Notes: a model not told the origin generated them from the sequence alone. 64,000 bases of DNA from Candidatus Micrarchaeota archaeon CG10_big_fil_rev_8_21_14_0_10_45_29 (GCA_002778455.1 PFCD01000001.1:53445-117444), one strand, 5' to 3'. Counted from the stretch's first letter, positions 23,204 to 45,381 are shown. A program made the numbers and translations.

Positions 23204-23422
23204 ATGAAGACATATAGCGCCATCATACTAAAAGATGAGGACATGTATGTGGCAAAATGCCCGGAAGTCGGCACAGTCAGCCAAGGCAGTACAATAGAGG
23301 AGGCGCTTGCCAACCTCAGGGAAGCCACCGAGCTCTATCTTGAGGAATTCCCGGCACAATCCTTTTTCCGCCCGCTTATGACTACCTTCGAGGTGCGCGA
23401 GCATGCCCCCTCCCCTTCTTAA
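23204..23422 (+). CDS. hicB: HicB-like antitoxin (UPF0150 family)
   Basis: 'MKTYSAIILKDEDMYVAKCPEVGTVSQGSTIEEALANLREATELYLEE' matches the HicB N-terminal domain consensus. Confidence 0.6.
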   Translation: MKTYSAIILKDEDMYVAKCPEVGTVSQGSTIEEALANLREATELYLEEFPAQSFFRPLMTTFEVREHAPSPS

Positions 23423-23639
23423 GAAAATCTCAGGGATGGAATGCGCCAAGATACTTTGCAAGCACTTCGGTTTCCAAATCGTGCGCCAGAGGGGCAGCCA
23501 CATAATTCTTGCAAAAGGATACGGAGCTGAGCGCAAAGGGACGGTCGTCCCGGCGCATCGCGAACTCAAAATAGGCACCCTCAAGGGCGCCCTGGAGCTT
23601 GCCGGAGTGGACGAGGAGGAATTCTCAAAGCACCAATAG
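23403..23639 (+). CDS. hicA: HicA-like mRNA interferase toxin (YcfA family)
   Basis: 'CAKILCKHFGFQIVRQRGSHIILAKGYGAERKGTVVPAHRELKIGTLKGALELAGV' fits the YcfA/HicA fold motif (GSH...P.H). It overlaps hicB by 20 nt. Confidence 0.65.
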   Translation: MPPPLLKKISGMECAKILCKHFGFQIVRQRGSHIILAKGYGAERKGTVVPAHRELKIGTLKGALELAGVDEEEFSKHQ

Positions 23640-23659: not shown

Positions 23660-24418
23660 ATGGACATAAACGACGCGTGGAAAGACACGTGCAAAATAGT
23701 CCTTGGCGGAGAAATAGGCGATTTGCAAAAATATGAAAAATATCTTCAAACCTATGTCGAGCCAATATATGAGAAAAACTCCTCCCTAAGCCAAAAGAAA
23801 GTAATAATCTCACGTCCGGACTTTTGCAAAAATGCAAAATTCATCTCATTTGACGAGCAGGAAAAATACAACAAGCAAATTTCGGATATAAAACTAAACT
23901 TAAACCAGATAAAAGACATAGATTCAATTCTCTCCTCAATAAGCGAGCAATTTTATTATGCAGGCAACCAGATAACCGGCAACTGCTCAAACATAGAAAA
24001 TTCGGACAATGTGATGGATTCGCATTATGTAATAAATTCAATAGAAATCGCGGGGGGAAAATTTATCGCCTACTCCTCAATGGCGCGCTTTGACGAATAT
24101 TTATTCGGAGTAAACTGGTCGGGGCAGGCAAAATACTGCATAAAATGCTTTGAAACATACAAGCAAAGCCGCTGCTTTGAGACTTTGAGCGTCTGGACAT
24201 CCTCCGACTGCTATTATTCTGCCCGCCTTGAGGGATGCGGCGACTGCATATTCTCATTTAACCAAAAGCACAAAAACAACCTTATAGGCAACCTGCAATT
24301 TCCAAAAGAAGAATATGCAAAACGCAAAAAAGCGCTTCTTGATCAGATAAGAAGCACTCTTGAGAGCAAGAAAAGAATACGCTCAATACTTGAGATAATG
24401 GGGGGTGTCAATGGGTGA
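23660..24418 (+). CDS. Cys-rich paralogue, A-module only (252 aa), unit 1 of the array; unknown family
   Basis: The N-terminus is 'WKDTCKIVLGGEIGDL..YEKYL', followed by 'KSSLSQK', 'IKDIDSI' and 'FYYAGNQITGNCSNIENSD'. Then come Cys ladders ('SSDCYYSARLEGCGDCIFSFN') and an 'IGNLQFPKEEY' tail. It is homologous to the other seven genes. Confidence 0.7.
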   Translation: MDINDAWKDTCKIVLGGEIGDLQKYEKYLQTYVEPIYEKNSSLSQKKVIISRPDFCKNAKFISFDEQEKYNKQISDIKLNLNQIKDIDSILSSISEQFYYAGNQITGNCSNIENSDNVMDSHYVINSIEIAGGKFIAYSSMARFDEYLFGVNWSGQAKYCIKCFETYKQSRCFETLSVWTSSDCYYSARLEGCGDCIFSFNQKHKNNLIGNLQFPKEEYAKRKKALLDQIRSTLESKKRIRSILEIMGGVNG

Positions 24419-25175
24419 GCAAATAGAGGGCGCATTCTCCTCGGTCACTTCAATTCTTTTCGGCAAAGCCCTCCAAAAAATTGACGACTACGGGGATTGG
24501 CTTTTGAAAAATCGAAGAAAGATAAGAACCGTAAAATCCACAATAAGCGGCAAAGAGGAGCTGATACCTCCGCTGGAGTTTCACCACGCAATCGACAGGG
24601 TATATGTTACAAACGAAGAGGCATTCAAACTCGGGGAAACAAAAGCAAAAAAAGAGGACATAGAAAAAACCACCATCCAAAACGCGGACAAAACACTCAA
24701 AAACATCCTTTATTACTCTCCCGACGTGCAAATGGGAAAAAATCAGGAAATGGAATTTTGCGCCCACTACATTGACTGCCAATTTTGCTACAAATCCGTC
24801 TCCATGGGGCATGTAAAATATGCTGCTTACTCTTTTTGGCCCCGCGACTCGGAATACATGTTTGGAGTGGACACCGTATTCTCCTCAAAATTCTGCATAA
24901 AATGCTACAATTCGGTAAATTTAACCCGCTGTTTTGAAACCTCCCACTCCTCCCATTGCTCTGACTGCTATTTCTGCCACAACTGCGACGGCTGTTCCGA
25001 GTGCATGTTTTGCACAAACGCAAAAAGCCTTCGCTATGCAATATTCAACAAACAATATCCAAAAGAGGAATACTTAAAACTCAAAAAGAAAATACAGGAA
25101 GAAATCTTCGCAAAATTGGAAAAAGATAAAAAATTAGACTTAAACATATTCAATTTAGGGTGCTATAAAAAATGA
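24405..25175 (+). CDS. Cys-rich paralogue, B-module only (256 aa), partner of 23660..24418
   Basis: 'FGKALQKIDDYGDWLL', 'YSFWPRDSEYMFG' and 'HCSDCYFCHNCDGCSECMFC' (7 Cys spaced CxxC) are present. The tail is 'YPKEEYLKLKKKIQEEIFAKLEKDKKLDLNIFNLGC'. It overlaps the upstream gene by 14 nt. Confidence 0.7.
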   Translation: MSMGEQIEGAFSSVTSILFGKALQKIDDYGDWLLKNRRKIRTVKSTISGKEELIPPLEFHHAIDRVYVTNEEAFKLGETKAKKEDIEKTTIQNADKTLKNILYYSPDVQMGKNQEMEFCAHYIDCQFCYKSVSMGHVKYAAYSFWPRDSEYMFGVDTVFSSKFCIKCYNSVNLTRCFETSHSSHCSDCYFCHNCDGCSECMFCTNAKSLRYAIFNKQYPKEEYLKLKKKIQEEIFAKLEKDKKLDLNIFNLGCYKK

Positions 25176-26767
25176 AATACTCGCAAGCCTACGAAGGGCT
25201 CAGCAAGGAATGGAAAAACACCTGCCGAATCCTGCTAAAAGAAGAGATAGGGGAGCTTAGCGACTTCAGTGGCTATCTCCAAAAATATATAGAGCCAGTA
25301 AGGGCGCAGAAATCATCGTTAAGCCAAAAGAGCATTACTCTCTCCAATGACGCCGCCTGTCCCCCAAAGAGAGTCATCGGAATGGAAGAGCTTGGCGTTT
25401 ATGCCAAAAAAACAGAAAAAATAAAGCTGGATATTAACCAAATCAAAGACATAGACTCCATTATCTCTTCTTTAGAGGAGAAATTTTATTATTGCGGAAA
25501 CGTCGTGCTCGGAAACTCAAGCAACGTGGAGAATTCCCACAGATGCACAAACACCAATTACGCACTAGCATCCCACGAAGTCGCGGATTGCCAGTATATC
25601 TCAAATTCAACAATGGCGAGATATTGCGAGTACATATTCGGTTCAAGCATTATGGGTGAGACAAAATACCTCATAAACGTCCTCTATTCTACAAAATCCG
25701 TGCGCTGCATGGAATGCACCCACCCCCTCCGTTCTTCCGACTGCTATTTCGGGGCAAACCTTGAGGACTGCTCCGACTGCATGTTCAGTTTCAATCTCAA
25801 GAATAAGAACAATTCCATCGGCAATCTGCCTCTTGAGAAAAGTAAATATATGCAAATAAAACAGAAGCTCTTATCCGAAATCGCCCGGAAGCTAAAAAAG
25901 GAGAAAAACATGCGTGGAATAATCGAGCTTATTGCCGGAATTCCAAGCCCTTCAACGCCAAAAGAGCGCCCCGAATACGTTTTCAAAACACAACACCCGC
26001 CTTCCAAGGAGGTGGAGGAGGCATTTCAAGCCACAACCAAGGTGCTTTTGGGAAAGCCCCTTTCAAATCTCCAGACATATGAGAAATATTTGCTTGCAAA
26101 CACGAAAAAACCCATCTCAGCCAAATCAGCCATAAGTTCAAAGCCCCTGCACGCAATCCCCATGCTCTTTAACCGGGAGCTGAAAAACTCCTTTGTAAGC
26201 CGGGATGAAGCTGCAGAGCTGTCCTCAAGGCGCATAAGCCCGCAATCCGCCGATGAACTAAGCCTTGAAAACATGGATAAAATCCTTCATGAGATCAAAT
26301 ACACTTGCCCTCAGGTAATTCTTGGAGAAAATGAGGATGTTGAAGAAAGCGTGGTTTACAACACATCAAGGCACTGCTACGGGGGCTCGGTGTATTATTT
26401 TGCAAAATATTGCGCCTATTGTTTCTGGCCGCGCAATTCCGAATACATCTTTGGTTCCACCTCCGTATTCTCATCAAAATTCTGCCTCGCTTGCCACTAT
26501 TCAAGCTCCCTTACCCGATGTTTTGAGCTTAGCGACTGCAACAACTGCTCCGACTGCTATTTCTGCCACAACGTGGAAAATTGCACAGAATGCATGTTCT
26601 GCTTCAATACAAAAGCCAAAAGATACGCAATCGGGAACGTGGAATATCCAAAGGAGGTATACTTAAAACTCAAAAAGAAAATACAGGAAGAAATCTTCGC
26701 AAAATTGGAAAAAGATAAAAAATTAGACTTAAACATATTCAATTTAGGGTGCAAAAAAAATGGATAA
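25172..26767 (+). CDS. Cys-rich paralogue, fused A+B form (531 aa)
   Basis: The N-half matches 23660 ('WKNTCRILLKEEIGEL', 'IKDIDSI', 'FYYCGN'). The C-half matches 24405, and its last 31 aa are encoded by 93 bp identical to 25071..25163. There is an ATGA overlap with the upstream gene. Confidence 0.75.
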   Translation: MKYSQAYEGLSKEWKNTCRILLKEEIGELSDFSGYLQKYIEPVRAQKSSLSQKSITLSNDAACPPKRVIGMEELGVYAKKTEKIKLDINQIKDIDSIISSLEEKFYYCGNVVLGNSSNVENSHRCTNTNYALASHEVADCQYISNSTMARYCEYIFGSSIMGETKYLINVLYSTKSVRCMECTHPLRSSDCYFGANLEDCSDCMFSFNLKNKNNSIGNLPLEKSKYMQIKQKLLSEIARKLKKEKNMRGIIELIAGIPSPSTPKERPEYVFKTQHPPSKEVEEAFQATTKVLLGKPLSNLQTYEKYLLANTKKPISAKSAISSKPLHAIPMLFNRELKNSFVSRDEAAELSSRRISPQSADELSLENMDKILHEIKYTCPQVILGENEDVEESVVYNTSRHCYGGSVYYFAKYCAYCFWPRNSEYIFGSTSVFSSKFCLACHYSSSLTRCFELSDCNNCSDCYFCHNVENCTECMFCFNTKAKRYAIGNVEYPKEVYLKLKKKIQEEIFAKLEKDKKLDLNIFNLGCKKNG

Positions 26768-27518
26768 CCTAAATGGCGTATTCAAGCAAACCTGCAAAAC
26801 AATCTTCGGCAAGGAGATAGGCGATTTGAAAAACTATGAATCCTACTTCAAGGAGGCAGTTCCCGGCATGGAGGTAAAATCCGCCTTCTCAGGGGAAACC
26901 GCCTTCGCGGCGGCAGACGACTACGCAAAGGGCTCAAAATTCTACAACTACCAAAAGGAAATAGATAAAATCTCAACCCTAAACAAGCCCTTTAACATAA
27001 ATGAAATAAAAGACATAGACTCCCTCATAAACGCCACCCGCGAGCGCTACGTCTATTCCTCAAACAAGATTTTGGGGAAATTTGAGAATGTGTCTGCATC
27101 GGATGTAATAATTGACTCCATAAACATTGTCGGAAGCGCAAACCTCTCAAAATGCAAAAACGCAGCCTTTTGCTTTCTGGCAAGAGAATCTCAAAACGTA
27201 TTTGGGTGCGCTTCATTCGGCTTTGATACAAATGTGATTCGCAGCTGCTACCACAAAAACAACGCACGAACTTTTGAGTGCGCGGTTGAGGAATACTTAA
27301 GCGACTCCCTTTTTTGCTACAATGTGTTCAATTCGTCCGATTGCATATTCTGTTTCAACCTAAAAAACAAGAAAAACATGGTAGCGAATATACAGCTTAC
27401 AAAAGAGCAATACTCGTCCAAAAAGGCGGACTTAATTGAGCAAATCACCTCTGAATTGGAGTCAAAGGGCAGGCTTGACTTTAGCATAATGGGTTTGAGC
27501 GGGCGTTTGCATGGATGA
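26760..27518 (+). CDS. Cys-rich paralogue, divergent A-module (252 aa)
   Basis: 'FKQTCKTIFGKEIGDLKNYESY', 'INEIKDIDSLI' and 'SSDCIFCFNLKNKKN' are present. It overlaps the upstream gene by 8 nt. Confidence 0.65.
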   Translation: MDNLNGVFKQTCKTIFGKEIGDLKNYESYFKEAVPGMEVKSAFSGETAFAAADDYAKGSKFYNYQKEIDKISTLNKPFNINEIKDIDSLINATRERYVYSSNKILGKFENVSASDVIIDSINIVGSANLSKCKNAAFCFLARESQNVFGCASFGFDTNVIRSCYHKNNARTFECAVEEYLSDSLFCYNVFNSSDCIFCFNLKNKKNMVANIQLTKEQYSSKKADLIEQITSELESKGRLDFSIMGLSGRLHG

Positions 27519-28284
27519 ATTTGAGAAATCATTTGCACAAACGACAAAAATTCTTCTTGGGGCAGAGCTTGGCTCTTTTTATGATTATTCAAAGTGGCTT
27601 TCTGAGCATGTGTTTTTACCTTATTGCGCAAAATCAAAAAAATCGGGAAAAGAAGTGTGGCTTGCACCCTCGCGGGACTTTCTTGGAAAAAAGTTTGACG
27701 CCGCCCGCATTGTCTCAATGGAGGAGGGGGAAATAAACAAAGAGAACTCCTACTCTTACGAGGACATAAAAGATGCGGATTTGAACTCATTTAGAACTAA
27801 ATTCTGCGAGCCAATAGCCCTGTATCTTGGGAACTTTCGCTACAAAACACATCAAAATGCTCTCAAATCTTCGGGAACAGGAGATTGTGTGAATGTGTAT
27901 ATGGGGGAAGATGTTTATCACGGTGCGCGCAACATCGGCTTTTGCAAAAGCATGCTATACTGCGAAAACATATTCGGATGCCGCGAGGGCACAAACTGCA
28001 AATACTGCATAAACTGCTACGGCTCAACCTACCTCACCAGATGCTTTGAGATGGATTCATGCACAAAATGCTCTGACTCATACTTCTGCCACAACTGCGA
28101 AAATTTGGAAAACTGCCTCTTCTGCTTCAACTCAAAAGGATTGCACTACGCAATAGCAAACATAGAAGTGGGAAAAGAAAAATACATGGAAATAAAAAAG
28201 AAAATCCTCACAGAAATTTCCCAAAAGCTTGAAAAAAACAAAAAACTTGACATAAGCATATTCAACATAGGTGCAAGAAAATGA
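27511..28284 (+). CDS. Cys-rich paralogue, B-module (257 aa)
   Basis: The core is 'TNCKYCINCYGSTYLTRCFEMDSCTKCSDSYFCHNCENLENCLFCFNSKGLHYAIANIEVGKEKY', and the tail is '..KLEKNKKLDISIFNIG'. It overlaps the upstream gene by 8 nt. Confidence 0.7.
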   Translation: MDEFEKSFAQTTKILLGAELGSFYDYSKWLSEHVFLPYCAKSKKSGKEVWLAPSRDFLGKKFDAARIVSMEEGEINKENSYSYEDIKDADLNSFRTKFCEPIALYLGNFRYKTHQNALKSSGTGDCVNVYMGEDVYHGARNIGFCKSMLYCENIFGCREGTNCKYCINCYGSTYLTRCFEMDSCTKCSDSYFCHNCENLENCLFCFNSKGLHYAIANIEVGKEKYMEIKKKILTEISQKLEKNKKLDISIFNIGARK

Positions 28285-29846
28285 GCCAAATAGCAGACGA
28301 GATAAACAAATCCTGGCACGAGACATTCAGGATTCTCTTTGGAACCGATTGCAAGCACAACCTTGAAGAACTCTCTGAATGGCTCTTTCGCGACCATTAT
28401 CCGCCCATGTACGTAAAATCCTCAATTTCCGGCAAACCAGTTACCCTCTGCTCCACAAGATACTCGAAAACTTCAAAATTCATCTCGCAGGAGGAAATAA
28501 GCTATTCCAGAAAGCACCGGCTAGACATAAACAAAATCAAGGATATTGACTCAATTCTTGAGGCAATAGAAGATCGCGCATATTATGCCGGAAACAAAAT
28601 ATTCGGCTCCACAACCAACAGCGAGTCCTGCGACAACATAACCGATTGCCACTATGCATACCATAGCTCTGTATGCTCCCAGTCAAAGCAGCTGGGCTAC
28701 TCTTCATACGCGCGCGACAACAGCGAATACTCCTTCGGCTCTGAAATACACAGCAAAGGCAAATACCTAATCCGGGTTTTGGGGGCCGCCGGCCTGGCCC
28801 GCTGTTTCGAGTCATACATAATAACCAATTCCTCTGACCTTTTCTATACTTTCGACTGCTCTGGCTGCGACAACGCAATGTTTTCCTTCGGCCTGCGCTC
28901 CAAACGATATTGCATAGGCAACCTGCCCCTCGAAAAATCCAAATACCTGCCCCTGAAGAAAAAACTCACCCAAGAAGCGGCAGAATACATAAACAAGCAC
29001 AAAACCTTCCCATCAGTATATGATTTTCCACCCCCAGACAAGTCCAAAATAAAGCCGCTTTCCATAACGCCTACTCTTGCCCCAAAAATGGATTTCAAGC
29101 CCATTGACGAGGCTTTTGAAACCGCCACCAAAGTAATCCTTGGAAAGCCCCTCTCCCCTGTAAAAAATTACCGGAAATTCCTCACAAAGCGCTCGGATGC
29201 CGTGCAGATAATAAAAACTATATTCGGAAGCGAGGGCCTCTACTCCAAGTACTCATGGTATCGCGCCGTCCCCCACGAGCGCGCAATAACCATGGCAGAG
29301 GCGCGCGAGATGGAAAGCCGCCACATAACTTTGAGCGAATCCGAAAATCTGGGCTCAATACTTAAAAAATGCGAAGCCATCGCCTTTTACGCAGTGGATT
29401 TCAAGGAGGGGCAGAACACAAACAACTCATACACCCAGGTGGAATTCAATGCCATAAACTCATACATGTGCGGGGATGTTACCTACTCAAAAAACGCGGC
29501 ATTTGACACAATGGCCTTCCACAGCGAGGCGGTGTTCGGCTGCTTTAGGGCAATACACTCCAAATATTCAATCCGCTGCCATGACTGCTTCCAATTAACC
29601 GCCTGCATGGACATGGACTCATGCTCCTACTGCTCAAATTCAATGTTTTGCCACAACTGCGAAAACCTTGAGAACTGCATGTTCTGCTTCAATGCAAAAA
29701 GCCTCAAATACGCCATAGGCAACGTGGAAGTAGGGAAAGAAAAATACGCCGAGATAAAAAAGAAAATCTGCGATGAAATATTAGCCCAAATAGAAAAAAA
29801 CGGGGATTTGGGCTTTGACATATGCGATTTAGGGTGCAAAAAATGA
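28281..29846 (+). CDS. Cys-rich paralogue, fused A+B form (521 aa)
   Basis: There is an ATGA overlap with the upstream gene. The A-half has 'WHETFRILFGTDC', 'INKIKDIDSI' and 'YYAGNKIFGSTTNSESCDN'. The B-half has 'FETATKVILGKPL' and 'CSNSMFCHNCENLENCMFCFNAKSLKYAIGNVEVGKEKY'. Confidence 0.75.
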   Translation: MSQIADEINKSWHETFRILFGTDCKHNLEELSEWLFRDHYPPMYVKSSISGKPVTLCSTRYSKTSKFISQEEISYSRKHRLDINKIKDIDSILEAIEDRAYYAGNKIFGSTTNSESCDNITDCHYAYHSSVCSQSKQLGYSSYARDNSEYSFGSEIHSKGKYLIRVLGAAGLARCFESYIITNSSDLFYTFDCSGCDNAMFSFGLRSKRYCIGNLPLEKSKYLPLKKKLTQEAAEYINKHKTFPSVYDFPPPDKSKIKPLSITPTLAPKMDFKPIDEAFETATKVILGKPLSPVKNYRKFLTKRSDAVQIIKTIFGSEGLYSKYSWYRAVPHERAITMAEAREMESRHITLSESENLGSILKKCEAIAFYAVDFKEGQNTNNSYTQVEFNAINSYMCGDVTYSKNAAFDTMAFHSEAVFGCFRAIHSKYSIRCHDCFQLTACMDMDSCSYCSNSMFCHNCENLENCMFCFNAKSLKYAIGNVEVGKEKYAEIKKKICDEILAQIEKNGDLGFDICDLGCKK

Positions 29847-31426
29847 GCGAACCCCTGCAAACCCTAGAGCGCAAATTCAAGGAGACCTGCAAAATAGTCC
29901 TCGGGGAGCCAGTAGGCGATTTGCAGGAATTTCTCCCATGGCTTTCAATCCATCCGGGCCAAATCAGCGCCAAAAAATCAAGCGTATCCGGAAAGCAGGT
30001 GGTATTTACCCGGATGGAATACGAAGGCAACCGCTTTATCAGCCTAGATGAGGTTGATTTCAGCAAAAAATACCCAAAAATTAATCCGGCCAGCATGGCA
30101 GGAATTGTTTCACTGGCAAAAACTCTTTCAGACCGTTTTTATTATGCAGGAAACCTGATTCTGGGCAATTCAAATTTTGTGGAGAGCAGCACAAACATAT
30201 CTGATTGCCATTATGCCTATGAAGCAATACAGGCAACCAATTCAAAATACATATTCAAGTGCAACCACGGGCGCGAGGACGATTCCCTATTCGGGGTTTA
30301 CGGCTCCGGGGAATCCTCATTCTGCCTAAGCTGCAGCCAGCTTGTGAGGGTAAAGCGCAGCATGGAAACATGGGTGAGCAACAACAGCTCGGATTGCTAT
30401 TATTGCTACGGGCTAGACAGCTGCAGCAACTGCATCTTTTGCTTCCATCTCAAAAACCGGCGCTATTGCGTTGGAAACGTGCAGCTTGAGCCAGAGGAAT
30501 ACGACCGGATAAAGCAAAGGCTATTATCCGAAATCAGGGGAATTCTAAAAAAGGAAAAAAAGATTCCCAGCCTTGTAGACGTTGCAAGAAAATGCAGGCT
30601 TTCAATACCCCCCCTATCCCAAACACGCCGGGACGAGAATTCAACTGAAGTTACAAACAAGAGGAGAATCGAGAACGAATTCGCGCTAACCTTTCTGGTA
30701 TTGTTTGGGCATGCCCCGGAAAGCATAGACAAATACGAGCAATTCCTCAGGCGCCACGTGAGGCTCAGCCAAACATGCAAGTCGGCGGCAAGCGGCAAGA
30801 GCATTGAGATGTGCACCCATGCCCTATTCAGGATAAACCTCCCGCCAGAGAGAATCCTCTGCATGGCAGAGGCGGAAGAACTGGGGGAGAAATACGACAT
30901 TGGCAAGGATGCGGCGCAAACCATATCAATGCAAAATGCTCATGAGAAAATATCCAAAATCGCCTTTTTCGACGCCGATTTCTGGGAGGGGCAAAATTCA
31001 AACATAATAGACTGTGTAGTGCCAGTAGAATCCTCCGACTGCTACAAATCCGTAGCCATGGTATATTCCAAAAACTGCGCATACACCTTCTGGCCTGTAA
31101 ATTCCTCAAACTGCTTTGGCTGCGACACCATCTTCCATTCCTCCAGCTGCATAAACTGCTACCACTCCGTAAAACTCTCCCGCTGCTTCGAGCTGGACTC
31201 CTGCCGCGACTGCTCAGACTCCCTTTTCTGCCACAACATAGAAAACTGCTCAAACTGTCTTTTTTGCTTTAACGTAAAAGCCAAAAGATACGCAATAGGC
31301 AACGTGGAATACCCCAAAGAAGAATACCTAAAACTCAAAAAGAAAATACTCATGGAACTTTCCCAAAAGCTTGAAAAGGATAAGAATCTCGATATATCCA
31401 TATTCAACATAGGGTGCAAAAAATGA
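29843..31426 (+). CDS. Cys-rich paralogue, fused A+B form (about 527 aa from the ATG at 29843)
   Basis: The likely start is 'MSEPLQTLERKFKETCKIVLGEPVGDLQEF', which overlaps the upstream stop as ATGA; the ORF track extends it to 29822. The B-half has 'YTFWPVNSSNCFGCDTIFHSSSCINCYHSVKLSRCFELDSCRDCSDSLFCHNIENCSNCLFCFNVKAKRY'. Confidence 0.75.
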   Translation: MSEPLQTLERKFKETCKIVLGEPVGDLQEFLPWLSIHPGQISAKKSSVSGKQVVFTRMEYEGNRFISLDEVDFSKKYPKINPASMAGIVSLAKTLSDRFYYAGNLILGNSNFVESSTNISDCHYAYEAIQATNSKYIFKCNHGREDDSLFGVYGSGESSFCLSCSQLVRVKRSMETWVSNNSSDCYYCYGLDSCSNCIFCFHLKNRRYCVGNVQLEPEEYDRIKQRLLSEIRGILKKEKKIPSLVDVARKCRLSIPPLSQTRRDENSTEVTNKRRIENEFALTFLVLFGHAPESIDKYEQFLRRHVRLSQTCKSAASGKSIEMCTHALFRINLPPERILCMAEAEELGEKYDIGKDAAQTISMQNAHEKISKIAFFDADFWEGQNSNIIDCVVPVESSDCYKSVAMVYSKNCAYTFWPVNSSNCFGCDTIFHSSSCINCYHSVKLSRCFELDSCRDCSDSLFCHNIENCSNCLFCFNVKAKRYAIGNVEYPKEEYLKLKKKILMELSQKLEKDKNLDISIFNIGCKK

Positions 31427-32148
31427 AAAAAAAGAAACAGCCCCAAGAAATTCAAAAAACCGACTCAAAGCTCAAAGCCGCAACCATTGGCTTCTACCAC
31501 CAAAACTGCCAGACAAGCATAAGCACCGAAAAATTCCCCCACATCACTTTGGAGCAGGTAAGCCCGGTGGTATATTTCAGAAGGGAAAAGGACTGGATGG
31601 ACTACAGCCTCATATGGAACGTAAAGGCCGAAAAAGAGTCCGAATTAGAAGAATACTTAAATTATATAAAAAAGCGAAACGACACAAAGCGCCTCTCCAT
31701 ACTGAACAAATCAGGCACAGAAGCCCTCATCCTCCTGCGCTTCAAATCCCCCTCCTCAAGCTATGAAAAAGTCCTTGAGAGCGGCACAATCCCCACCTCC
31801 CCTGTAATAGCAAAAGAGGGCTTTGAGACATATAATTTGCTTGCAATAAATCCGAAGGGAATCAAAAACCTCTCAAAAGAGCTTGACGCCATAGGGGACG
31901 TGAAAATGATGCGCGTGGGCGAATACAAAAATTCCGGCGACTTGCCATCCCTTACCCACAAGCAAAAAGACGCGCTCATAATGGCGATGATAAACGGCTA
32001 TTACAAATGGCCGAAAAGCACAAATCTTGAAAAGCTCTCAGAGCTTGCAAACATATCCAGAAGAAGCATGCAGGAGAGGCTGCGCCGCGCCGAATCCAAG
32101 CTTTTTCCCCATTTAATCAAAAAACACGTAAAAAAGGGCGAAAAATAG
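31423..32148 (+). CDS. HTH_10 (bacterio-opsin-activator/Bat-type) helix-turn-helix transcriptional regulator embedded in the Cys-rich gene array
   Basis: The C-terminal 'LTHKQKDALIMAMINGYYKWPKSTNLEKLSELANISRRSMQERLRRAESKLF' matches HTH_10 strongly. The probable ATG at 31423 overlaps the upstream stop (ATGA). The ORF track start at 31414 would require a GTG start. Confidence 0.7.
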   Translation: MKKKKQPQEIQKTDSKLKAATIGFYHQNCQTSISTEKFPHITLEQVSPVVYFRREKDWMDYSLIWNVKAEKESELEEYLNYIKKRNDTKRLSILNKSGTEALILLRFKSPSSSYEKVLESGTIPTSPVIAKEGFETYNLLAINPKGIKNLSKELDAIGDVKMMRVGEYKNSGDLPSLTHKQKDALIMAMINGYYKWPKSTNLEKLSELANISRRSMQERLRRAESKLFPHLIKKHVKKGEK

Positions 32149-32160
32149 GGCATATGCCCT

Positions 32161-33783
32161 ATGCAAGTTTATTACATTAAACTCCCTTATCCATATATGC
32201 CTGAACCCCTAGACACGCTGCAACAAAGATGGGATGCCACATGCAAAATATTGCTAGGCGAGCCGATAGGCGCTTTGCAGGATTACAGGGAATGGCTTCT
32301 GGAGCTCACCGAACCCCTCCACCACACCGCCTCCTCAATTTCCGGCAAAAAAACCACATACTACGTAACCAAATACGAAAAAAATTCAAAAAGAATCTCA
32401 TTTGAAGAGATAGATTTTGCCAAAAATTACCCTGCCCCAAATATGGATGCAAAAAATATACAAGAGCTTCTTAACTCAATCTCCGGCCGTTTCCACTACG
32501 CTGGAAACATAATTCTTGGAAAATGCGGCGCAATAGAAAAATCCTCAAATTTGCAAAACTCGTTTTACATGCTTGAGTCCGGCAACTACGACGGCTGCAA
32601 ATACACGGCATACTCTACGGTGGGCAGATTCTCCGAGGACTCATACGGGGGAAACGGCATAGGAAACTCATCCATAGTGCTAAAGTGCAAAGAAACTTTT
32701 GAGAATAAACGCTGCCTTGAGGCATGGATGAGCCAATATGTATCTGACTGCTACTACTCGTACGCTCTTGCAAACTGCTCTGACTGCATGTTTTGCTTCC
32801 ACCTAAAGGGCAAAAAGCACTGCATAGGCAACCTGCAATTAACTCCTGAGCAATACAAGCAAATTAAGAAAAAACTCCTCTCCCAAATGCTCTCCTACTT
32901 AAAAGAGCACAAGCGCCTTCCCTCTTTGGCGGAAATTGCCAGAAATTCAAAATTGGACAAATCCATAATAGAAAAAATAAAATTGCCAGAGTCAAAAAAA
33001 GAGAAAAAAGATTTGCAGGAAATAGAATCTGCCTTCAAAAAAGCCTGCAAACTCATTTTCGGAAAAGAGCTTCCTGGCAAAATAGACGATTATGGCAAAT
33101 GGCTCTCCACAAACAAGAGGGAAATAAAATCATACAAATCCGCAATTTCGGGAAAGCCAGTATTCATTGGTGACTACTGCGCCCTCTTTGATTTGCCAAA
33201 AGACCGCCTCCTAGGGGCGGATGAAGCCCCAGCATTCGCGCAGGCGGCGCATCTCTCTTTAGAAGAAGTGCAAAGCCTTGAATTTTCCAAAATAACCCAA
33301 ATACTTGGGAAAATCGCCTATTTCTCCCCAGAATATTACGAGGGCGCAAGCGCGAACATAATAGACACTCCAACGGCAATGGATTCCTCCAACTGCTACA
33401 AAACATTTGCAACCGTATGGGCAAAATATTGCGCCTATGGCTTCTGGCCGCGAAGCTCCGAATACATTTTCGGCTTTGACACCTGCCTCTCCTCCTCCTT
33501 TTGCATAAACTGCTACAATTCCACCAGCCTCACCCGCTGCTTTGAGATGGACGGGTGTGCAAACTGCTCGGATTCATACTTCTGCCACAACTCAGAATCA
33601 CTCTCAAACTGCCTCTTCTGCTTCAACGTAAAGGCAAAGCACTATGCAATTGGAAACGTAGAGGTGGGAAAAGAAAAATACGAAAAAATAAAAAAAATGG
33701 TTTTGGAAGAAATTGCGAAAAAGCTTGAAAAAGAGAAAAAGCTAGAATTAAATATCTACAACATCGGCTCTTTAAAAAAATAA
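32161..33783 (+). CDS. Cys-rich paralogue, fused A+B form (about 528-540 aa)
   Basis: The N-terminus is 'LQQRWDATCKILLGEPIGALQDYREWLL'. The B-half has 'FKKACKLIFGKELPGKIDDYGKWL', 'YGFWPRSSEYIFG', 'CANCSDSYFCHNSESLSNCLFCFNVKAKHYAIGNVEVGKEKY' and the tail 'KLEKEKKLELNIYNIG'. The true start may be the ATG at 32197. Confidence 0.75.
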   Translation: MQVYYIKLPYPYMPEPLDTLQQRWDATCKILLGEPIGALQDYREWLLELTEPLHHTASSISGKKTTYYVTKYEKNSKRISFEEIDFAKNYPAPNMDAKNIQELLNSISGRFHYAGNIILGKCGAIEKSSNLQNSFYMLESGNYDGCKYTAYSTVGRFSEDSYGGNGIGNSSIVLKCKETFENKRCLEAWMSQYVSDCYYSYALANCSDCMFCFHLKGKKHCIGNLQLTPEQYKQIKKKLLSQMLSYLKEHKRLPSLAEIARNSKLDKSIIEKIKLPESKKEKKDLQEIESAFKKACKLIFGKELPGKIDDYGKWLSTNKREIKSYKSAISGKPVFIGDYCALFDLPKDRLLGADEAPAFAQAAHLSLEEVQSLEFSKITQILGKIAYFSPEYYEGASANIIDTPTAMDSSNCYKTFATVWAKYCAYGFWPRSSEYIFGFDTCLSSSFCINCYNSTSLTRCFEMDGCANCSDSYFCHNSESLSNCLFCFNVKAKHYAIGNVEVGKEKYEKIKKMVLEEIAKKLEKEKKLELNIYNIGSLKK

Positions 33784-33792
33784 GAAAAAAAA

Positions 33793-35538
33793 CTACTCCA
33801 GCGGCCCCCTGCCCTTAAAATACGTCTTCTCGCCGGTATAAGGGTCATGCTTTATGCCCAAATCAACATTTATCCAATCCTGCGTATCAACCGTGCGGGT
33901 TATCATGGGGATAATATATTTTTTGCCGTCATATAGGCGGGCAATGCATTCGCGGGTATGCAATTTCACAAACATTTCCCTCTTGGAGGCATCAAGCTCG
34001 GAAGGACTGACGCTTCGCTTGAAAAATTCCTCCACCTTTATATCCATCATGGATGAGAGAAGGCGCGCATCCTCTTTTGTAACGCGAAAAGCGAATATGT
34101 TGCGCGCATTTGAAATAAGGGCATCAAGCACCTCTTTTGAGAGTTGCCCCAAATACTGGGCGGCGGCATAAGTGTATAAATTAAACTTGCGCGTCTCTGC
34201 CAAAATGTCTTTTACAACCTTTGTCTCAACAGTGGGAAATTCATCCACTATAAGCATGGTTTGCATTTTTAGCTTCTCGCTAATCGCCATCATATACATC
34301 TGATTCACTATGGCGCCAGCAAAAAATTTGATTATCCTGCGCCCGAAAAAGTGGGGGTTGAAAGAGACGATTGTAAGCCTCTCGTTTTGCACTATTTTTC
34401 CCAAATCTTCCAAATGCTTTGCCTTTCCCAAATAAAGCATGTATTCGCCTATGAAATTTGTGACGGGCAATATGGCGTCGTTGAAATGGTGCATATAAAT
34501 GTCCTGAAATTCCTTGTCAAAAAACCGCTTTACCTCGTCATTTTGGCTCATGGCGGTGAATTCCATTCTTTTTGAAGAGTCGGTAAGAAGCAAATTAATA
34601 TTCTCAAGGTTCAAATCGTTGATGTCTGCCAAAAGGTGCACAGAGTAAAACACCACTCTCTCCGCGTATTTTGACTCCTGCGCTATTGTGGAGGTAATAA
34701 GCTGAGCAACCAATTGGGTGATAAGCGGGCTTTTTCCTGTGCCCACGTCAAAGGGCTCCACATAATTGTTGCGAAAGTCAATTATTTTCGCGTCAGGGAA
34801 ATATTTTGCAAATTCTCCGTGCGGGTCCACAACAACTATTCGCACATCTTTGTATTTTTGCAAAACCGCTTTTATGAGTATTTGTATAAATTTGGATTTT
34901 CCGCTTCCCGAAGTGCCTACAATGATGCCGTGCTGGAAAACGTCAAAATTATTTACCCCTATGCGCGCGCTGTCGCTCACAAGCACGGGGTTTGGCGACT
35001 CCAAATAAACCGCCTTGGGAATAGGGTCAAGCAATTCTATGTAAAAGAGGGGGTTGTTCTCAAGGTCTATCTCCAAAAATTTCATGGGGTTTGTAAGCGC
35101 AAGCATCCCGCGCCTCCCCCCGTAATCCACAAAATTTCCAAAGCCGTAGTAAATGCCAAAGAATTTTATGACTCTAATCCTTATCTCCTCAACATTTTCC
35201 TTTATCAAAAAGTTGAAGAAATTTGTGCCGCCTACAACTTTTGTTCCAAGGGAAAATTTGCTTTTTGAGAGCTCGAGGGGCGCCGGGTCGTTTATCCTGA
35301 AAGGAAACATCAATGCCGACTGCCCGTATATGTTGTCTTTGTCCTTGATAAACATCTTTATGGTGTTGTTATACCTTTTTATTACAAATTCCACTCCGCG
35401 AAAAGAGAAAGCGCGCGATAGGTCTATTGCCTCCAGGAGCGGTATATGCTTTTTTGTAAGCATGTCAAATGTGCGCTTGTAATCCTCCGAAGTTATTTTT
35501 GGAGCGTAAATGGAGAGCTCTGCGTATTTTTTTGCCAT
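33793..35538 (-). CDS. HerA/VirB4-like (DUF87/AAA_10-type) P-loop NTPase
   Basis: Walker A is 'GIIVGTSGSGKSKFIQIL'. 'VVVDPHGEFAKYF' is a HerA/VirB4-type motif and Walker B is 'MLIVDEFPTV'. 'RKFNLYTYAAAQ' is an arginine-finger/Q motif. No NurA partner is seen nearby. Confidence 0.65.
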   Translation of the reverse strand: MAKKYAELSIYAPKITSEDYKRTFDMLTKKHIPLLEAIDLSRAFSFRGVEFVIKRYNNTIKMFIKDKDNIYGQSALMFPFRINDPAPLELSKSKFSLGTKVVGGTNFFNFLIKENVEEIRIRVIKFFGIYYGFGNFVDYGGRRGMLALTNPMKFLEIDLENNPLFYIELLDPIPKAVYLESPNPVLVSDSARIGVNNFDVFQHGIIVGTSGSGKSKFIQILIKAVLQKYKDVRIVVVDPHGEFAKYFPDAKIIDFRNNYVEPFDVGTGKSPLITQLVAQLITSTIAQESKYAERVVFYSVHLLADINDLNLENINLLLTDSSKRMEFTAMSQNDEVKRFFDKEFQDIYMHHFNDAILPVTNFIGEYMLYLGKAKHLEDLGKIVQNERLTIVSFNPHFFGRRIIKFFAGAIVNQMYMMAISEKLKMQTMLIVDEFPTVETKVVKDILAETRKFNLYTYAAAQYLGQLSKEVLDALISNARNIFAFRVTKEDARLLSSMMDIKVEEFFKRSVSPSELDASKREMFVKLHTRECIARLYDGKKYIIPMITRTVDTQDWINVDLGIKHDPYTGEKTYFKGRGPLE

Positions 35539-35725: not shown

Positions 35726-36862
35726 ATGGGACAAACAACACAAAACGCAAAAGAGGCGGCTTCAAATTATTCCAATCCCACACTTAGCGTGCTGGGCTCC
35801 CATTCCGCGCTCGACATCTGCCACGGCGCAAAAGCGCACGAGATTCCAAACCTTGTAGTATGCCAAAAGGGGCGGGAAAAAACATATTCCCAGCATTACA
35901 AGGCGCGCGAAAACGCCATAGGAAGCCAGGGATGCGTTGATGAGATTCTTCTTCTTGAGAAATTCAAAGACATTGCAAACTCGGACTCGCTGGAATTTTT
36001 GAAAAAAAAGCAGGCAATATTTGTGCCTCACCGCTCTTTTTCCGTATATGTGGGGTATGATAAAATAGAGAATGAATTTGAAATCCCTATATTTGGCAAC
36101 CGCTATTTATTGCGCGCAGAAGAGAGGGGTGAGAAAAACAACCAGCGCGATTTGCTTATAAAAGCCGGAATAAAGGTGCCAAAAACCCTCGCCTCGCACG
36201 GGGAAATAAACTCTCTTTGCATAATAAAGGCAAGCGAGGCAAAGCGAAGCTATGAGCGGGCATTCTTTTTTGCATCCACTCCTGCGCAATACGAGGAAAA
36301 ATCAAAAAAAATGGTAGAAAAAGGAATAATTACAAAAGAGGGGCTTGAAGGGGCGCTAATAGAGGAATTTGCACTGGGCGCACCCTTTAACTTCAATTAC
36401 TTTCTCTCTCCCCTCACAGGCGAGCTTGAATTATTGGGAATAGACACGCGGCGCCAGACAAATTTGGACGGCTGGCTTCATCTGCCTGCAGAACAGCAGC
36501 TTGAAATCTCCAAAATGGCAAAAGTAAACAATATAGAGGCAGGGCACATCGCCTGCACAATAAGGGAATCTTTGCTTGAGCAGGTATTTGAAATAGGCGA
36601 GAAATTTGCAAAAACATGCAAAGAAGAATATTCTCCGGGCCTAATAGGGCCCTTTGCATTGCAGGGCGCGCTCGTGCCGGGCGAGAAGGGCGAGGAAATT
36701 ACAATATTTGACGTATCCTTCAGGGTGCCCGGCTCACCGGGCACAAGATTCACTCCATATACCGAATATTTATTCGGCAAATCCGCCTCCGTGGGCTCGC
36801 GCATAGCACTGGAAGTTTCCCAAGCGCTAAAAACCGGCAAAATAGAGAGAATAATAACATAA
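35726..36862 (+). CDS. PurP paralogue (ATP-grasp, FAICAR synthetase-like, DUF1246/DUF1297)
   Basis: It aligns along its whole length with PurP-type proteins: 'LSVLGSHSALDICHGAK', 'VPHRSFSVYVGYD', 'IFGNRYLLRAEER', 'IDTRRQTNLDG', 'IRESLLEQVFEIG', 'IGPFALQ' and 'SFRVPGSPGT'. Confidence 0.7.
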   Translation: MGQTTQNAKEAASNYSNPTLSVLGSHSALDICHGAKAHEIPNLVVCQKGREKTYSQHYKARENAIGSQGCVDEILLLEKFKDIANSDSLEFLKKKQAIFVPHRSFSVYVGYDKIENEFEIPIFGNRYLLRAEERGEKNNQRDLLIKAGIKVPKTLASHGEINSLCIIKASEAKRSYERAFFFASTPAQYEEKSKKMVEKGIITKEGLEGALIEEFALGAPFNFNYFLSPLTGELELLGIDTRRQTNLDGWLHLPAEQQLEISKMAKVNNIEAGHIACTIRESLLEQVFEIGEKFAKTCKEEYSPGLIGPFALQGALVPGEKGEEITIFDVSFRVPGSPGTRFTPYTEYLFGKSASVGSRIALEVSQALKTGKIERIIT

Positions 36863-36983: not shown

Positions 36984-38036
36984 ATGATAAGCAGAAAAGA
37001 AATAGAAAAAGTGCTTAAAAGCTATGACAAGAAAAACCTCTCGCTCGCAACTTTGTGCTCACACTCCTCCTTGCAAATTTTTTACGGCGCAAGAAAAGAG
37101 AAGGTGCACACAATAGGGCTAGTTACAAATGAGGCGCAAAAAAAGCTTTATGACGCATTTCCAAAGGCAAAGCCGGATGAATTTATAGAAGTGGAGGATG
37201 CAGAGGATTTTCCTGAAAGCGAGCTTCTCTCAAAAAACGCGCTTATCATCCCGCACGGCTCAATAGTGGAATACACCGGCGACCTTTTGGATGGGCTAAA
37301 GGTGCCTGTGCTTGGAAACCGATTGTCTTTGCTATGGGAAAAAGACCGCACAAAAATGTTTGAATGGATGAAAAAGGCAGGATTGCGCACCCCTCTAATA
37401 TTTAACCCCGATAAAATAGACCGCCCATGCGTTGTAAAGCATTTGGGGGCAAAAGGGGGGCGCGGATACGCCATAGTGCACTCGAGCGAGGAATTTCATT
37501 CAAAATTTGAAAATGTAAAAGGGGTAATGGTGCAGGAATACCTCACAGGGGTGAGAGTATATCCGCATTATTTCTACTCCCCTCTCTCAAAAAAAGGATA
37601 CAGGGCATCCGGCGGGCATCTTGAGATGATGTCAATTGACAGGCGCTTTGAGTCAAACATTGATGAGAGCTACCGCACCATGATGGCGGGGGTGCCCATA
37701 AAGGCATCCTTCACCGTAGTAGGAAACGAGCCGCTTGTGTTGCGCGAATCCTTATTGCCTGAAGTGCTTGAAATGGGAAAAAACACTGTTGAGGCGGCAG
37801 ACAAATTATTTGGCGGCATACCCGGGCCCTTCTGCCTTGAGCTGATAGTGGACGAGACTTTGCAATTTTATGCCTTTGAAATAAGCGCGCGAATAGTTGC
37901 AGGCACCAACATATATCCCGAAGGCTCGCCCTATTCCGTGTATTCGTTTGATGAGAATATGAGCACTGCGCGAAGAATTGCAAAAGAAGTAAAAGATGCT
38001 GCCAAAAAAGATATGCTTGAAAAAATTGCCTACTGA
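36984..38036 (+). CDS. purP: 5-formaminoimidazole-4-carboxamide ribonucleotide (FAICAR) synthetase PurP
   Basis: It is similar to archaeal PurP throughout: 'ATLCSHSSLQIFYGA', 'GNRLSLLWEKDR', 'GAKGGRGYAIV', 'YPHYFYSPL', 'IDRRFESNID', 'LRESLLPEVLEMG', 'PGPFCLE', 'EISARIVAGTN' and 'SPYS'. Confidence 0.85.
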   Translation: MISRKEIEKVLKSYDKKNLSLATLCSHSSLQIFYGARKEKVHTIGLVTNEAQKKLYDAFPKAKPDEFIEVEDAEDFPESELLSKNALIIPHGSIVEYTGDLLDGLKVPVLGNRLSLLWEKDRTKMFEWMKKAGLRTPLIFNPDKIDRPCVVKHLGAKGGRGYAIVHSSEEFHSKFENVKGVMVQEYLTGVRVYPHYFYSPLSKKGYRASGGHLEMMSIDRRFESNIDESYRTMMAGVPIKASFTVVGNEPLVLRESLLPEVLEMGKNTVEAADKLFGGIPGPFCLELIVDETLQFYAFEISARIVAGTNIYPEGSPYSVYSFDENMSTARRIAKEVKDAAKKDMLEKIAY

Positions 38037-45300: not shown

Positions 45301-45381
45301 CTCAAGTTATACTAACTACTTATTTATGTATATCCTGCCTCTGCCTGTTGTTTTTATAGTTTATCTTATTTTCTCTATTAT

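Follow-up and report, generated by a model that had tools for sequence, protein, structure and literature searches.

The array of FAM genes and its neighbourhood

The DNA analysed here, hereafter the window, is a stretch of 64,000 nucleotides from Candidatus Micrarchaeota archaeon CG10_big_fil_rev_8_21_14_0_10_45_29. Positions 23660-33783 carry eight intact ORFs in one orientation, which constitute six units associating a module A and a module B, as given by the original prediction. Two units are split between two genes (23660+24405 and 26760+27511) and four are fused (25172, 28281, 29843 and 32161). FAM is used here as a working name for the protein family encoded by these A/B module genes. 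A ninth gene located within the array (31414-32148) encodes a HTH_10 regulator. The features of the locus are the following:

23660..24418, + strand: unit 1 module A, split, 252 aa (ORF; A-module HMM, E 9e-89)
24405..25175, + strand: unit 1 module B, split, 256 aa from GTG 24405 (ORF; B-module HMM, E 3.4e-90)
25172..26767, + strand: unit 2, fused A-B, 531 aa (ORF, HMM; ATGA overlap with unit 1 module B)
26760..27518, + strand: unit 3 module A, split, 252 aa (ORF; A-module HMM, E 3.1e-62)
27511..28284, + strand: unit 3 module B, split, 257 aa (ORF; B-module HMM, E 4.3e-74)
28281..29846, + strand: unit 4, fused A-B, 521 aa (ORF, HMM)
29843..31426, + strand: unit 5, fused A-B, 527 aa from the NCBI start 29843 (100% identical to P0001, 527 aa)
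31414..32148, + strand: HTH_10-family transcription regulator (PF04967, E 9.8e-15)
32161..33783, + strand: unit 6, fused A-B, 540 aa, conserved 'post-HTH_10' ortholog group (ORF, HMM)
33793..35538, - strand: HerA/FtsK-superfamily P-loop ATPase, DUF87 + TrwB_AAD_bind (Pfam; PADLOC mad8 and HerA models)

Counted from the first in-frame start codons, the genes overlap by 14, 4, 8, 8, 4 and 25 nt. Module B of unit 1 probably starts at ATG 24411, which gives an 8-nt overlap (ATGGGTGA) with module A, and the first in-frame ATG of unit 5 lies at 29822 while its NCBI start lies at 29843; with ATG 24411 and the NCBI start, the overlaps become 8, 4, 8, 8, 4 and 4 nt. The A/B junction of unit 3 is an 8-nt overlap (ATGGATGA), and the HTH_10 gene probably starts at ATG 31423, with an ATGA overlap with the stop of unit 5. 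These overlapping junctions support the single translationally coupled operon proposed earlier, which had however overlooked the regulator gene: the array is well supported as a nine-gene, translationally coupled operon that includes six FAM paralog units and an internal HTH_10 regulator.

The array proteins have a pI of 6.7-8.5 and, using a 19-residue Kyte-Doolittle window, a highest mean of at most 1.28; as expected, this analysis reveals neither signal peptide nor transmembrane segment. The array displays no compositional anomaly, and a foreign island was ruled out by composition, absence of tRNA genes and conserved synteny. Downstream, the ATPase gene is convergent with the array, only 9 nt separating the two stop codons. 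Upstream, a HicAB toxin-antitoxin pair lies 20 nt from the array; neither this pair nor the upstream type IV pilus genes are conserved neighbours across FAM loci.

Grouping at 50% identity yields at least 342 FAM clusters; among the matches listed, the family is confined to Micrarchaeota-type genomes. An exhaustive HMM search gave about 1,580 further matches between E 1e-30 and 1e-3. The 76 FAM loci analysed include 154 fused genes, 38 A genes and 35 B genes, usually arranged in tandem, with as many as 10 genes per array and A almost always followed by B. Such arrays are common in Micrarchaeota, which could have spoken against the novelty claimed for them, but their genes are annotated only as 'hypothetical protein', so that the family is still undescribed.

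The neighbours of FAM genes recur to various degrees. Homologs of the ATPase, which are 50-71% identical across Micrarchaeota, adjoin FAM genes in 26 of the 76 FAM-anchored loci, with a median gap of 11 nt; in an ATPase-anchored sample, FAM is adjacent in six of eight genomes and no FAM gene lies within 10 kb at the two other ATPase loci. Within a single phylum, such conserved synteny can be historical rather than functional. HTH_10 homologs adjoin FAM genes in 18-20 of the 76 loci, typically just 5' of a U6-type gene. Other regulators include a divergent double-AsnC, located about 100-120 nt upstream of FAM in at least 12 loci, and TrmB, found in TrmB-FAM operonic pairs at locus L083. Among the 32 loci with full flanks, the ATPase or an HTH regulator lies 500 nt or less from a FAM gene in only 17.

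Each unit of the array has orthologs in other genomes that are 45-58% identical to it, closer than its paralogs in the window. For example, unit 1 has split orthologs (55-58% identity) at loci L001, L007 and L017, and the unit following HTH_10 is the best U6 match at L013, L042, L045, L047 and L051. Furthermore, the order of units recurs across genomes. The FAM paralogs are ancient and maintained, and these data contradict the ongoing duplication proposed previously. Gene conversion was detected as one short tract of 94 nt, present in two copies:

25070..25163, + strand: tract copy 1, 94 nt, 3' end of unit 1 module B (100% identical to 26659-26752)
26659..26752, + strand: tract copy 2, 3' end of unit 2 (coding for LKLKKKIQEEIFAKLEKDKKLDLNIFNLGC, a segment of the C-terminal helix)

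The codons flanking this tract are only 58-78% identical, with many synonymous differences. The near-identical tails attributed to the whole array are found only in B1 and B2, as the other module copies show 60-76% DNA identity; likewise, ongoing conversion is represented by this single tract and no further one.

The A and B modules and their predicted fold

The A and B modules are distant homologues, as previously noticed (blastp E 1e-16 to 1e-33, 18-31% identity). Within the array, identities reach 27-44% between A modules and 30-49% between B modules. No credible family match was obtained from Pfam, NCBIfam, PADLOC or PHROGs for the eight array proteins and ten Cys-poor homologs, PDB sequence searches using single protein and profile queries found no relatives and a fold search pointed to no family, in agreement with the absence of any recognizable family in the original prediction. 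A scan of viral contigs did not reveal any FAM relative or copy and a literature search did not find any description of the family. Three-module variants were found but no domain fusion to FAM. The apparent N-terminal extensions of the FAM proteins of L001 and L008 probably result from ORF over-calls since they overlap the upstream FAM gene, and the 338-aa extension found at L017 has no Pfam match.

The Cys-ladder solenoid suggested for the fused form was looked for in an AF2 model of unit 5 (m974889a61309; pLDDT 88, pTM 0.91), and a regular solenoid is indeed built, with 4-residue strands, one every 6 residues; the B-module coils 390-480 are of moderate confidence (pLDDT 66-74). Each module is predicted to begin with a helical/small-sheet cap (about 105 aa), to continue with a very narrow beta-solenoid built from about 10 coils of 12 residues, and to end with a C-terminal helix of about 25 residues. 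An alignment restricted to Cys-poor members is predicted to adopt the same architecture (pLDDT 78, pTM 0.78). From the periodicity, the substitution pattern and analogy, we infer that the small residue at each third solenoid position faces the interior; the helix handedness, the interface between A and B and the surface exposure of the patch conserved in B are likewise deduced and should be read as probable features of the fold.

Conservation is unevenly distributed along the proteins. The last four B coils (RCFE.D / YFCHN.EN / MFCFN.KN / IGN.E) are the most conserved, with an entropy of 1.1-1.5 bits in B coils 454-497 versus 2.0-2.7 bits elsewhere, and variability is highest in the inter-module linker (3.5 bits). 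Within a coil, the first half (positions 1-6) is better conserved than the second (positions 7-12). Several of the invariant residues, namely Gly and the Asn at turns, may be purely structural.

Cysteines and possible role of the FAM proteins

Cysteine accounts for 3.6-6.2% of the residues of the array proteins, i.e. 3-5 times the window background of 1.1%. The cores of about 113 residues carry 7-10 Cys when they belong to A modules and 10-13 when they belong to B modules, fewer than the 13-17 counted previously in the centre of each module. The periodicity reported for these residues stood: the profile autocorrelation peaks at 12 and 24, giving a repeat period of 12. Furthermore, 113 of 121 consecutive Cys-Cys spacings (93%) are divisible by 3, versus 32% +/- 4% in 2000 shuffles (maximum 47.5%). 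The number of Cys nevertheless varies from 2 to 36 across the 364 full-length FAM members, among which 26 have fewer than 12 and some low-GC relatives as few as 2-6. No ladder Cys is universal in these 364 members, the best six or seven positions being 74-92% conserved (C201, C204, C446, C455, C464, C482), and ladder Cys are replaced mainly by Ser (Ser > Val/Ala/Ile) without pair-specific covariation. The third positions of the solenoid are occupied mostly by Cys or Ser in this genome and by Ser, Val, Ile or Ala in low-GC relatives. The Cys-poor members, which derive from genomes of 28-34% GC, retain R179, E182, F208, N219, H471, N472, E474, F483, N484, K486 and N494. Since low-GC relatives carry Ser, Val, Ile or Ala at the same positions, the FAM cysteines are best read as core-packing residues of the solenoid and not as an obligatory metal site.

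The best explanation overall, which combines the operon described above with a panel of adaptors, is tentative and has somewhat less than an even chance of being right. In this model, FAM proteins would be soluble cytoplasmic A/B (pseudo)heterodimers, and the paralogs would have diversified into a set of subunits serving as binders, adaptors or recognition elements. Our best guess, made with low confidence, is that module B offers a docking surface common to these subunits: the last four B coils could form a shared docking or functional site, and each paralog could owe its specificity to the regions that vary, namely the linkers, the N-terminal coils and, in every coil, the second strand. Judging from gene context, the partner common to them all would most likely be the neighbouring and highly conserved HerA/FtsK-type ATPase. 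Expression would be set by dedicated HTH regulators, either HTH_10 or TrmB within the operon or a divergent double-AsnC.

Some alternatives give the cysteines a direct role. The CxxC ladders could chelate metals, Fe-S clusters or Zn for storage, detoxification or electron transfer, which would agree with a 3-5-fold Cys enrichment over the local background, the abundance of CxxC and CxxCxxC motifs, the proximity of the 74-92% conserved Cys to invariant His, Asp and Glu, and a regulated expression that would fit a stress protein. This reading is unlikely: FAM proteins carrying 2-6 Cys have lost neither the predicted fold nor any invariant polar residue, leaving obligatory multi-metal (Zn/Fe-S) binding, put forward earlier as a family property, unsupported, and no ladder Cys escapes replacement by Ser, Val, Ile or Ala, with no sign of covariation between pairs. 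Moreover, the array translations lack any CxxCxxCxxxCP motif, Pfam gives no match to Fer4, zinc-ribbon or another metal domain, zf-CXXC being the only zinc-finger match of the scan (E 0.75), and the structure proposed by AF2 is a regular solenoid, not a set of zinc knuckles. A variant restricted to Cys-rich lineages, including this genome, is highly improbable: interior thiols stacked at coil positions 2, 5, 8 and 11 of successive coils would coordinate a linear metal chain or an extended iron-sulfur/metal-thiolate core, and the Cys-poor orthologs would reflect a secondary loss in low-GC lineages. If true, these proteins would be protein-sheathed metal rods for storage or electron conduction.

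Other alternatives concern the partner, the conserved coils or the shape of the solenoid. FAM could belong to a system of anti-virus defence or conflict, with the HerA-type ATPase as the motor and the diversified FAM paralogs as sensors or effectors; the ATPase indeed matches PADLOC mad8 (E 4.5e-13) and many HerA defence models, and both tandem arrays of divergent paralogs and a HicAB pair 20 nt upstream would be compatible with defence. However, most of these HerA matches span the P-loop region only, no PADLOC model is convincing for FAM proteins, the ATPase looks core given its 50-71% identity across the phylum, the arrays are not patchy but show synteny and orthology between genomes, with no compositional island signal, and HicAB is not a conserved neighbour, which makes this proposal quite unlikely. 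It is very unlikely that the polar cluster of the last B coils (D459, H471, E474, K486, R454, E457) is the active site, possibly metal-dependent, of an enzyme located at the A/B interface. These invariant residues, probably outward-facing and stacked on adjacent coils, would suit such a site, and left-handed beta-helix enzymes are among the weak fold matches; in gamma-carbonic anhydrases and hexapeptide acyltransferases, active sites are formed between beta-helices. The least probable proposal of all is a cytoskeletal or amyloid-like polymer, with filaments formed by end-to-end stacking of the solenoids in the manner of bactofilin or curli: both ends are capped in the prediction, by the N-terminal domain and the C-terminal helix, the pTM of 0.91 points to a closed two-module globule, and the proteins have no bactofilin or curlin Pfam match, no signal peptide and many divergent paralogs.

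Whatever this role, Micrarchaeota maintain 6-10 or more copies of a FAM gene of about 1.6 kb although their genomes measure about 1 Mb, and the 10-kb array described here represents roughly 1% of the genome. The copy number and the phylum-wide sets of orthologs beside the ATPase and regulators strongly suggest a cellular function that is important, specific to this lineage and absent from the databases. FAM would be the first large family of cytoplasmic proteins in prokaryotes to have an ultra-narrow 12-residue beta-helix, a fold that, to our knowledge, is otherwise known mainly from beetle antifreeze proteins, and its natural series of Cys-rich and Cys-free proteins illustrates how such a core can form without disulfides. 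It also provides a defined target for structural and interaction studies in DPANN, with a predicted A+B heterodimer, a predicted conserved B face and a predicted ATPase partner.

Comparison with known systems

The only apparent relative came from PHROG 15341, which matches the B solenoid (hmmscan E 2e-8; hhalign 87% over 42 columns) and was traced to a CxxC-repeat protein of Campylobacter phage vB_CjeM_WX1 (UZV40580.1). Like FAM, this phage protein carries Cys at every third residue, but it has no cap domain, C-terminal helix or conserved polar motif. As the probability falls to 0.2% against a Cys-poor FAM profile, the match reflects periodic Cys only and kinship was rejected as an artefact. 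Among metalloproteins, FAM differs from 4Fe-4S ferredoxins and polyferredoxins by the lack of Fer4, of their motif and of invariant ligand Cys, and from zinc ribbons and zinc fingers, in which conserved tetrads of Cys/His ligands form knuckles, by AF2 strands every 6 residues and a wholesale loss of Cys in some lineages.

Like HerA-NurA, Sir2-HerA, DUF4297-HerA and MADS mad8, the FAM locus carries a HerA/FtsK-type ATPase gene beside a partner gene. However, this partner is a beta-solenoid family devoid of nuclease, Sir2 or other effector domain and the ATPase belongs to a conserved lineage-specific clade. HerA defence systems encode a recognizable effector in a variable island; here the ATPase matches their mad8 and HerA models, no effector model matches the FAM proteins, and the synteny of the arrays and the conservation of the ATPase across the phylum are unlike such islands.

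Among repeat proteins, the pentapeptide-repeat DNA mimics (MfpA/Qnr) have a 5-residue repeat, a 20-residue square coil and an acidic surface, in contrast to the period of 12 and lack of Pfam match of FAM; a DNA mimic was rejected on pI (6.7-8.5 here; family median 7.4). Bactofilins and curlins are recognized by a sequence match and uncapped solenoid ends, neither of which is found in FAM. Hexapeptide-repeat left-handed beta-helix enzymes (gamma-carbonic anhydrase, GlmU, LpxA/LpxD) are among the closest known systems, but their 18-residue triangular coils, Hexapep Pfam match and trimeric active site are not those of FAM. Curli CsgA (8C50) and the Lolium perenne ice-binding protein (3ULT), two flat two-sheet beta-solenoids, match the solenoid part only, with 1-2% sequence identity; both are secreted and lack a Cys ladder. 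Their coils are longer, about 14-22 residues.

The antifreeze protein TmAFP of Tenebrio molitor (PDB 1EZG) is a 12-residue TCTxSxxCxxAx beta-helix, secreted and disulfide-bonded. It shares no sequence homology with FAM (no Pfam AFP match at E <= 1; hhalign probability of 29% between the TmAFP sequence and the FAM profile). FAM proteins have neither a Thr-x-Thr ice-binding face nor a TCT ladder, are cytoplasmic rather than secreted, can dispense with Cys and, besides a cap domain and a C-terminal helix, have an architecture in two modules. Nevertheless, they likewise display 12-residue coils with a small residue at each third position, and their Cys spacing in multiples of 3 is the geometry of the beetle antifreeze helix.

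Organization of the array and its surroundings

The source of the window is a DPANN archaeon, Candidatus Micrarchaeota of the CG10_big_fil_rev series, and archaeal genes (PurP, topoisomerase VI B, type IV pilus ATPase) surround the array. The array, which encodes members of a protein family here called FAM, is a real and well-delimited feature, composed as follows (window positions; the ATPase gene in the last line lies beyond it):

23660 and 24405: unit 1, split A and B genes
25172: unit 2, fused
26760 and 27511: unit 3, split A and B genes
28281: unit 4, fused
29843–31426: unit 5, fused
31414–32148: HTH_10 regulator (PF04967, E 9.8e-15)
32161: unit 6, fused
33793–35538 (-): HerA/FtsK-type ATPase, convergent with the array

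The anatomy given by the original prediction is largely right. The eight FAM ORFs were all found, intact and co-oriented, but it had missed a ninth gene, the HTH_10 regulator inside the array. The array is thus a nine-gene coupled operon made of six A+B units and a regulator. Using the most plausible starts (ATG 24411; NCBI start 29843), the genes overlap by 8, 4, 8, 8, 4 and 4 nt. An ATGGxTGA junction is common to the two split pairs, and the likely ATG of the regulator overlaps the unit 5 stop as ATGA. When compared by blastp with the products of the split genes, every fused protein proves to carry an A module in its first half and a B module in its second. The proposed homology of the two modules is confirmed (blastp E 1e-16 to 1e-33 between A and B), identities in the 12-module alignment being 27–44% for A-A, 30–49% for B-B and 18–31% for A-B. 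The proteins are indeed Cys-rich (3.6–6.2%), but their cores hold 7–10 (A) or 10–13 (B) cysteines rather than the 13–17 claimed. The family member P0001 is 100% identical to the protein encoded by 29843–31426.

A HicB-like antitoxin gene (72 aa, weak Pfam matches) and a HicA toxin gene (78 aa, PF07927, E 3.3e-13) lie directly upstream (23204–23639, +) and end 20 nt ahead of the first array gene; this pair is not conserved beside FAM genes in other genomes. Elsewhere, the window carries a giant 2182-aa ORF (11424–17972, +), whose sole Pfam match is HATPase_c (residues 1672–1798), followed by a 234-aa ORF (17969–18673) without Pfam match. Two other proteins, of 862 aa (457–3045, +) and 414 aa (44999–46243, +), match no Pfam family at E <= 1e-5, and a 475-aa protein (53863–55290, +) displays several ankyrin repeats (Ank_2, E 1.6e-22), a domain uncommon in archaea.

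Distribution and evolution of the family

A word-indexed search retrieved 257 relatives, nearly all of about 520–535 aa, all labelled 'hypothetical' and none with a Pfam domain. An exhaustive profile search yielded 342 clusters (50% identity) at E <= 1e-30 and 1926 at E <= 1e-3, and when every GTDB species was represented by one genome, a scan gave 379 confirmed FAM stretches. All 76 retained loci come from Micrarchaeota, Micrarchaeia, Anstonellaceae, Bilamarchaeaceae, 'ainarchaeum' records or MAGs labelled only 'archaeon'. FAM is therefore an undescribed family confined to Micrarchaeota-type genomes. These loci contain 154 fused genes beside 38 A genes and 35 B genes. The genes often stand in tandem, with up to 10 per array, and split units are again mixed with fused ones, as in the window. 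The novelty initially claimed thus holds for annotation, which goes no further than 'hypothetical', but not for rarity: the arrays are a common, although unannotated, hallmark of Micrarchaeota genomes. Three-module variants, roughly A-B-B, also occur beside the usual two-module form (P0002, 730 aa; P0033, 822 aa). No FAM copy was found elsewhere in the window or on viral contigs, and no compositional anomaly was seen across the array.

The units of the window are closer to their orthologs in other genomes (45–58% identity) than to their home paralogs, and a same order (split unit 1 then fused unit 5; HTH_10 then unit 6) recurs in several genomes. Judged from these comparisons, the array is ancient and maintained, not recently amplified, and the ongoing duplication that had been proposed finds no support. 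The near-identical tails attributed to gene conversion are restricted to one 94-nt tract, identical in B1 and unit 2 and located at the 3' end of each (25070–25163 = 26659–26752); its flanks are 58–78% identical with many synonymous differences, and it is a clean local gene conversion. Otherwise, copies share 60–76% DNA identity.

Neighbouring genes

An unbiased census of neighbours identified three recurrent partners of FAM: homologs of the HerA/FtsK-type ATPase at 26 loci, separated by a median gap of 11 nt; at 19 loci, a 328-aa protein whose two HTH domains are of the AsnC type (Pfam); and at 18, an HTH_10 protein. The double-AsnC gene is usually divergent and located about 100–120 nt upstream of the FAM gene or array. 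Conversely, among eight ATPase homologs picked regardless of FAM, six are directly adjacent to FAM and two have none within 10 kb; one of these ATPase-anchored loci, L083, carries TrmB-FAM-TrmB-FAM operonic pairs. The main array is strongly linked to the ATPase and HTH regulators, yet this linkage is not general: of the 32 FAM loci flanked by 2.5 kb or more on each side, 17 show such a neighbour within 500 nt.

Loci from other genomes also repeatedly carry, beside the HerA-like ATPase or FAM genes, a gene encoding a PLP-dependent enzyme (PALP, PF00291) of about 460–520 aa:

L078, 8335–9726
L083, 3500–4954
L086, 8325–9743
L049, 6748–8313

Class I/II aminotransferases recur close by too (38488–39687 in the window). 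In the window, tandem PurP-type paralogs (DUF1246 + DUF1297; 35726–36862 and 36984–38036, +) lie directly past the ATPase gene. L083 includes a second DUF87-family gene (1–32, leaving the locus), encoding 1197 aa with an intein (Intein_splicing + LAGLIDADG_3), and L080/L081 a 149-aa RVT_1 reverse-transcriptase fragment (5671–6120), flanked by a ribosomal-protein operon on one side and by the ATPase/FAM locus on the other.

Predicted fold, proposed function and relation to known solenoids

The autocorrelation of the family profile peaks at lags 12 and 24, and 113 of the 121 consecutive Cys-Cys spacings in the eight window proteins are divisible by three, versus 32% +/- 4% in 2000 shuffles (maximum 47.5%). 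The AF2 model of the unit 5 protein, built on a 112-sequence alignment (mean pLDDT 88, pTM 0.91), gives each module an N-terminal part of about 105 aa with two helices and a small sheet, 4-residue strands every 6 residues (118–217 in module A) and a helix of about 22 residues (A 224–245; B 499–520); confidence is lower in the B solenoid (pLDDT 66–74, residues 390–480). FAM proteins are thus confidently predicted to form paired, capped solenoids with 12-residue coils, in agreement with the solenoid initially guessed; we infer the residue orientation, the helix handedness and the A-B interface.

The multi-metal or Fe-S reading of the cysteines fares differently. Across 364 non-identical full-length members, their number varies from 2 to 36 (<12 in 26), ladder cysteines (every third residue of the solenoid) being replaced by Ser first, then by Val, Ala, Ile or Thr, and no specific covariation was seen among column pairs. 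Members with 2–6 Cys keep the invariant residues R179, E182, F208, N219, H471, N472, E474, F483, N484, K486 and N494. Two of them come from genomes of 28% and 34% GC with a background of 0.8–1.2% Cys (1.1% in the window outside the array). For P0230, a member with 2 Cys, AF2 on 24 Cys-poor sequences only predicts the same architecture (pLDDT 78, pTM 0.78). Since the cysteines are replaceable and Cys-poor members keep both the invariant set and the predicted fold, the ladder would serve to pack the core of a very narrow helix, and obligatory multi-metal or Fe-S binding is not supported as the function of FAM; the Cys-rich lineages might nevertheless bind metal.

The most conserved stretch is the last four B coils (residues 454–497; 1.1–1.5 bits versus 2.0–2.7 elsewhere), where non-ladder residues are also fixed (RCFEvDsCrdCS / DcYFCHNCENlq / DcMFCFNvKNlR / YAIGNVEvGrE) and stack on successive coils in the 12-residue register (D459/H471/F483, N472/N484, E474/K486, N475/N487). 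Coil positions 1–6 are more conserved than positions 7–12. The N-terminal coils and linkers vary, and variability is highest, at 3.5 bits, in the inter-module linker, site of fission/fusion.

Tentatively, FAM proteins could be cytoplasmic A/B (pseudo)heterodimers whose diversified paralogs would serve as a set of recognition or adaptor subunits. The conserved face of module B would be the docking or functional site that they have in common, perhaps with the neighbouring ATPase as partner. Our confidence in this adaptor model is low; its rivals are that FAM proteins bind metal, belong to a HerA-based conflict system, are enzymes or form a polymer. The ATPase carries DUF87 and TrwB_AAD_bind domains and matches the PADLOC mad8 and HerA models; its 50–71% identity across Micrarchaeota suggests a core gene.

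Neither single FAM sequences nor the profile gave a credible match in Pfam, NCBIfam, PADLOC or PDB sequence searches, Foldseek of the model gave no match at E <= 1e-3 in PDB or BFVD, and no description of FAM was found in the literature. The PHROG match phrog_15341 (E 2e-8) leads to a phage protein in which CxxC repeats take up almost the whole sequence:

L089, 2914–3474: Campylobacter phage vB_CjeM_WX1, UZV40580.1, PHROG 15341; 186 aa

This protein matches the sequence of the beetle antifreeze protein TmAFP (1EZG; E 3.2e-5) and aligns with the Cys-rich FAM profile (hhalign 87%) but not with the Cys-poor one (0.2%), and TmAFP reaches only 29% against the FAM profile. Common descent of FAM with either is therefore rejected, the similarity resulting from periodic cysteines. 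UZV40580.1 itself, with its repeats (…NCKNCVNCFNCVDCSNCIDCFDC…), belongs to no Pfam family, is encoded next to helicase and radical SAM genes and may be another Cys-ladder beta-helix.

FAM is thus a new family, unusual in its coil geometry, in a known structural class, the beta-solenoid repeat proteins. Its 12-per-row pattern, x-C-x-x-C-x-x-(C/S/V)-x-x-(C/S/L)-x, places small residues at positions 2, 5, 8 and 11, hence at every third residue, as does the TCTxSxxCxxAx coil of the antifreeze protein from Tenebrio (1EZG).
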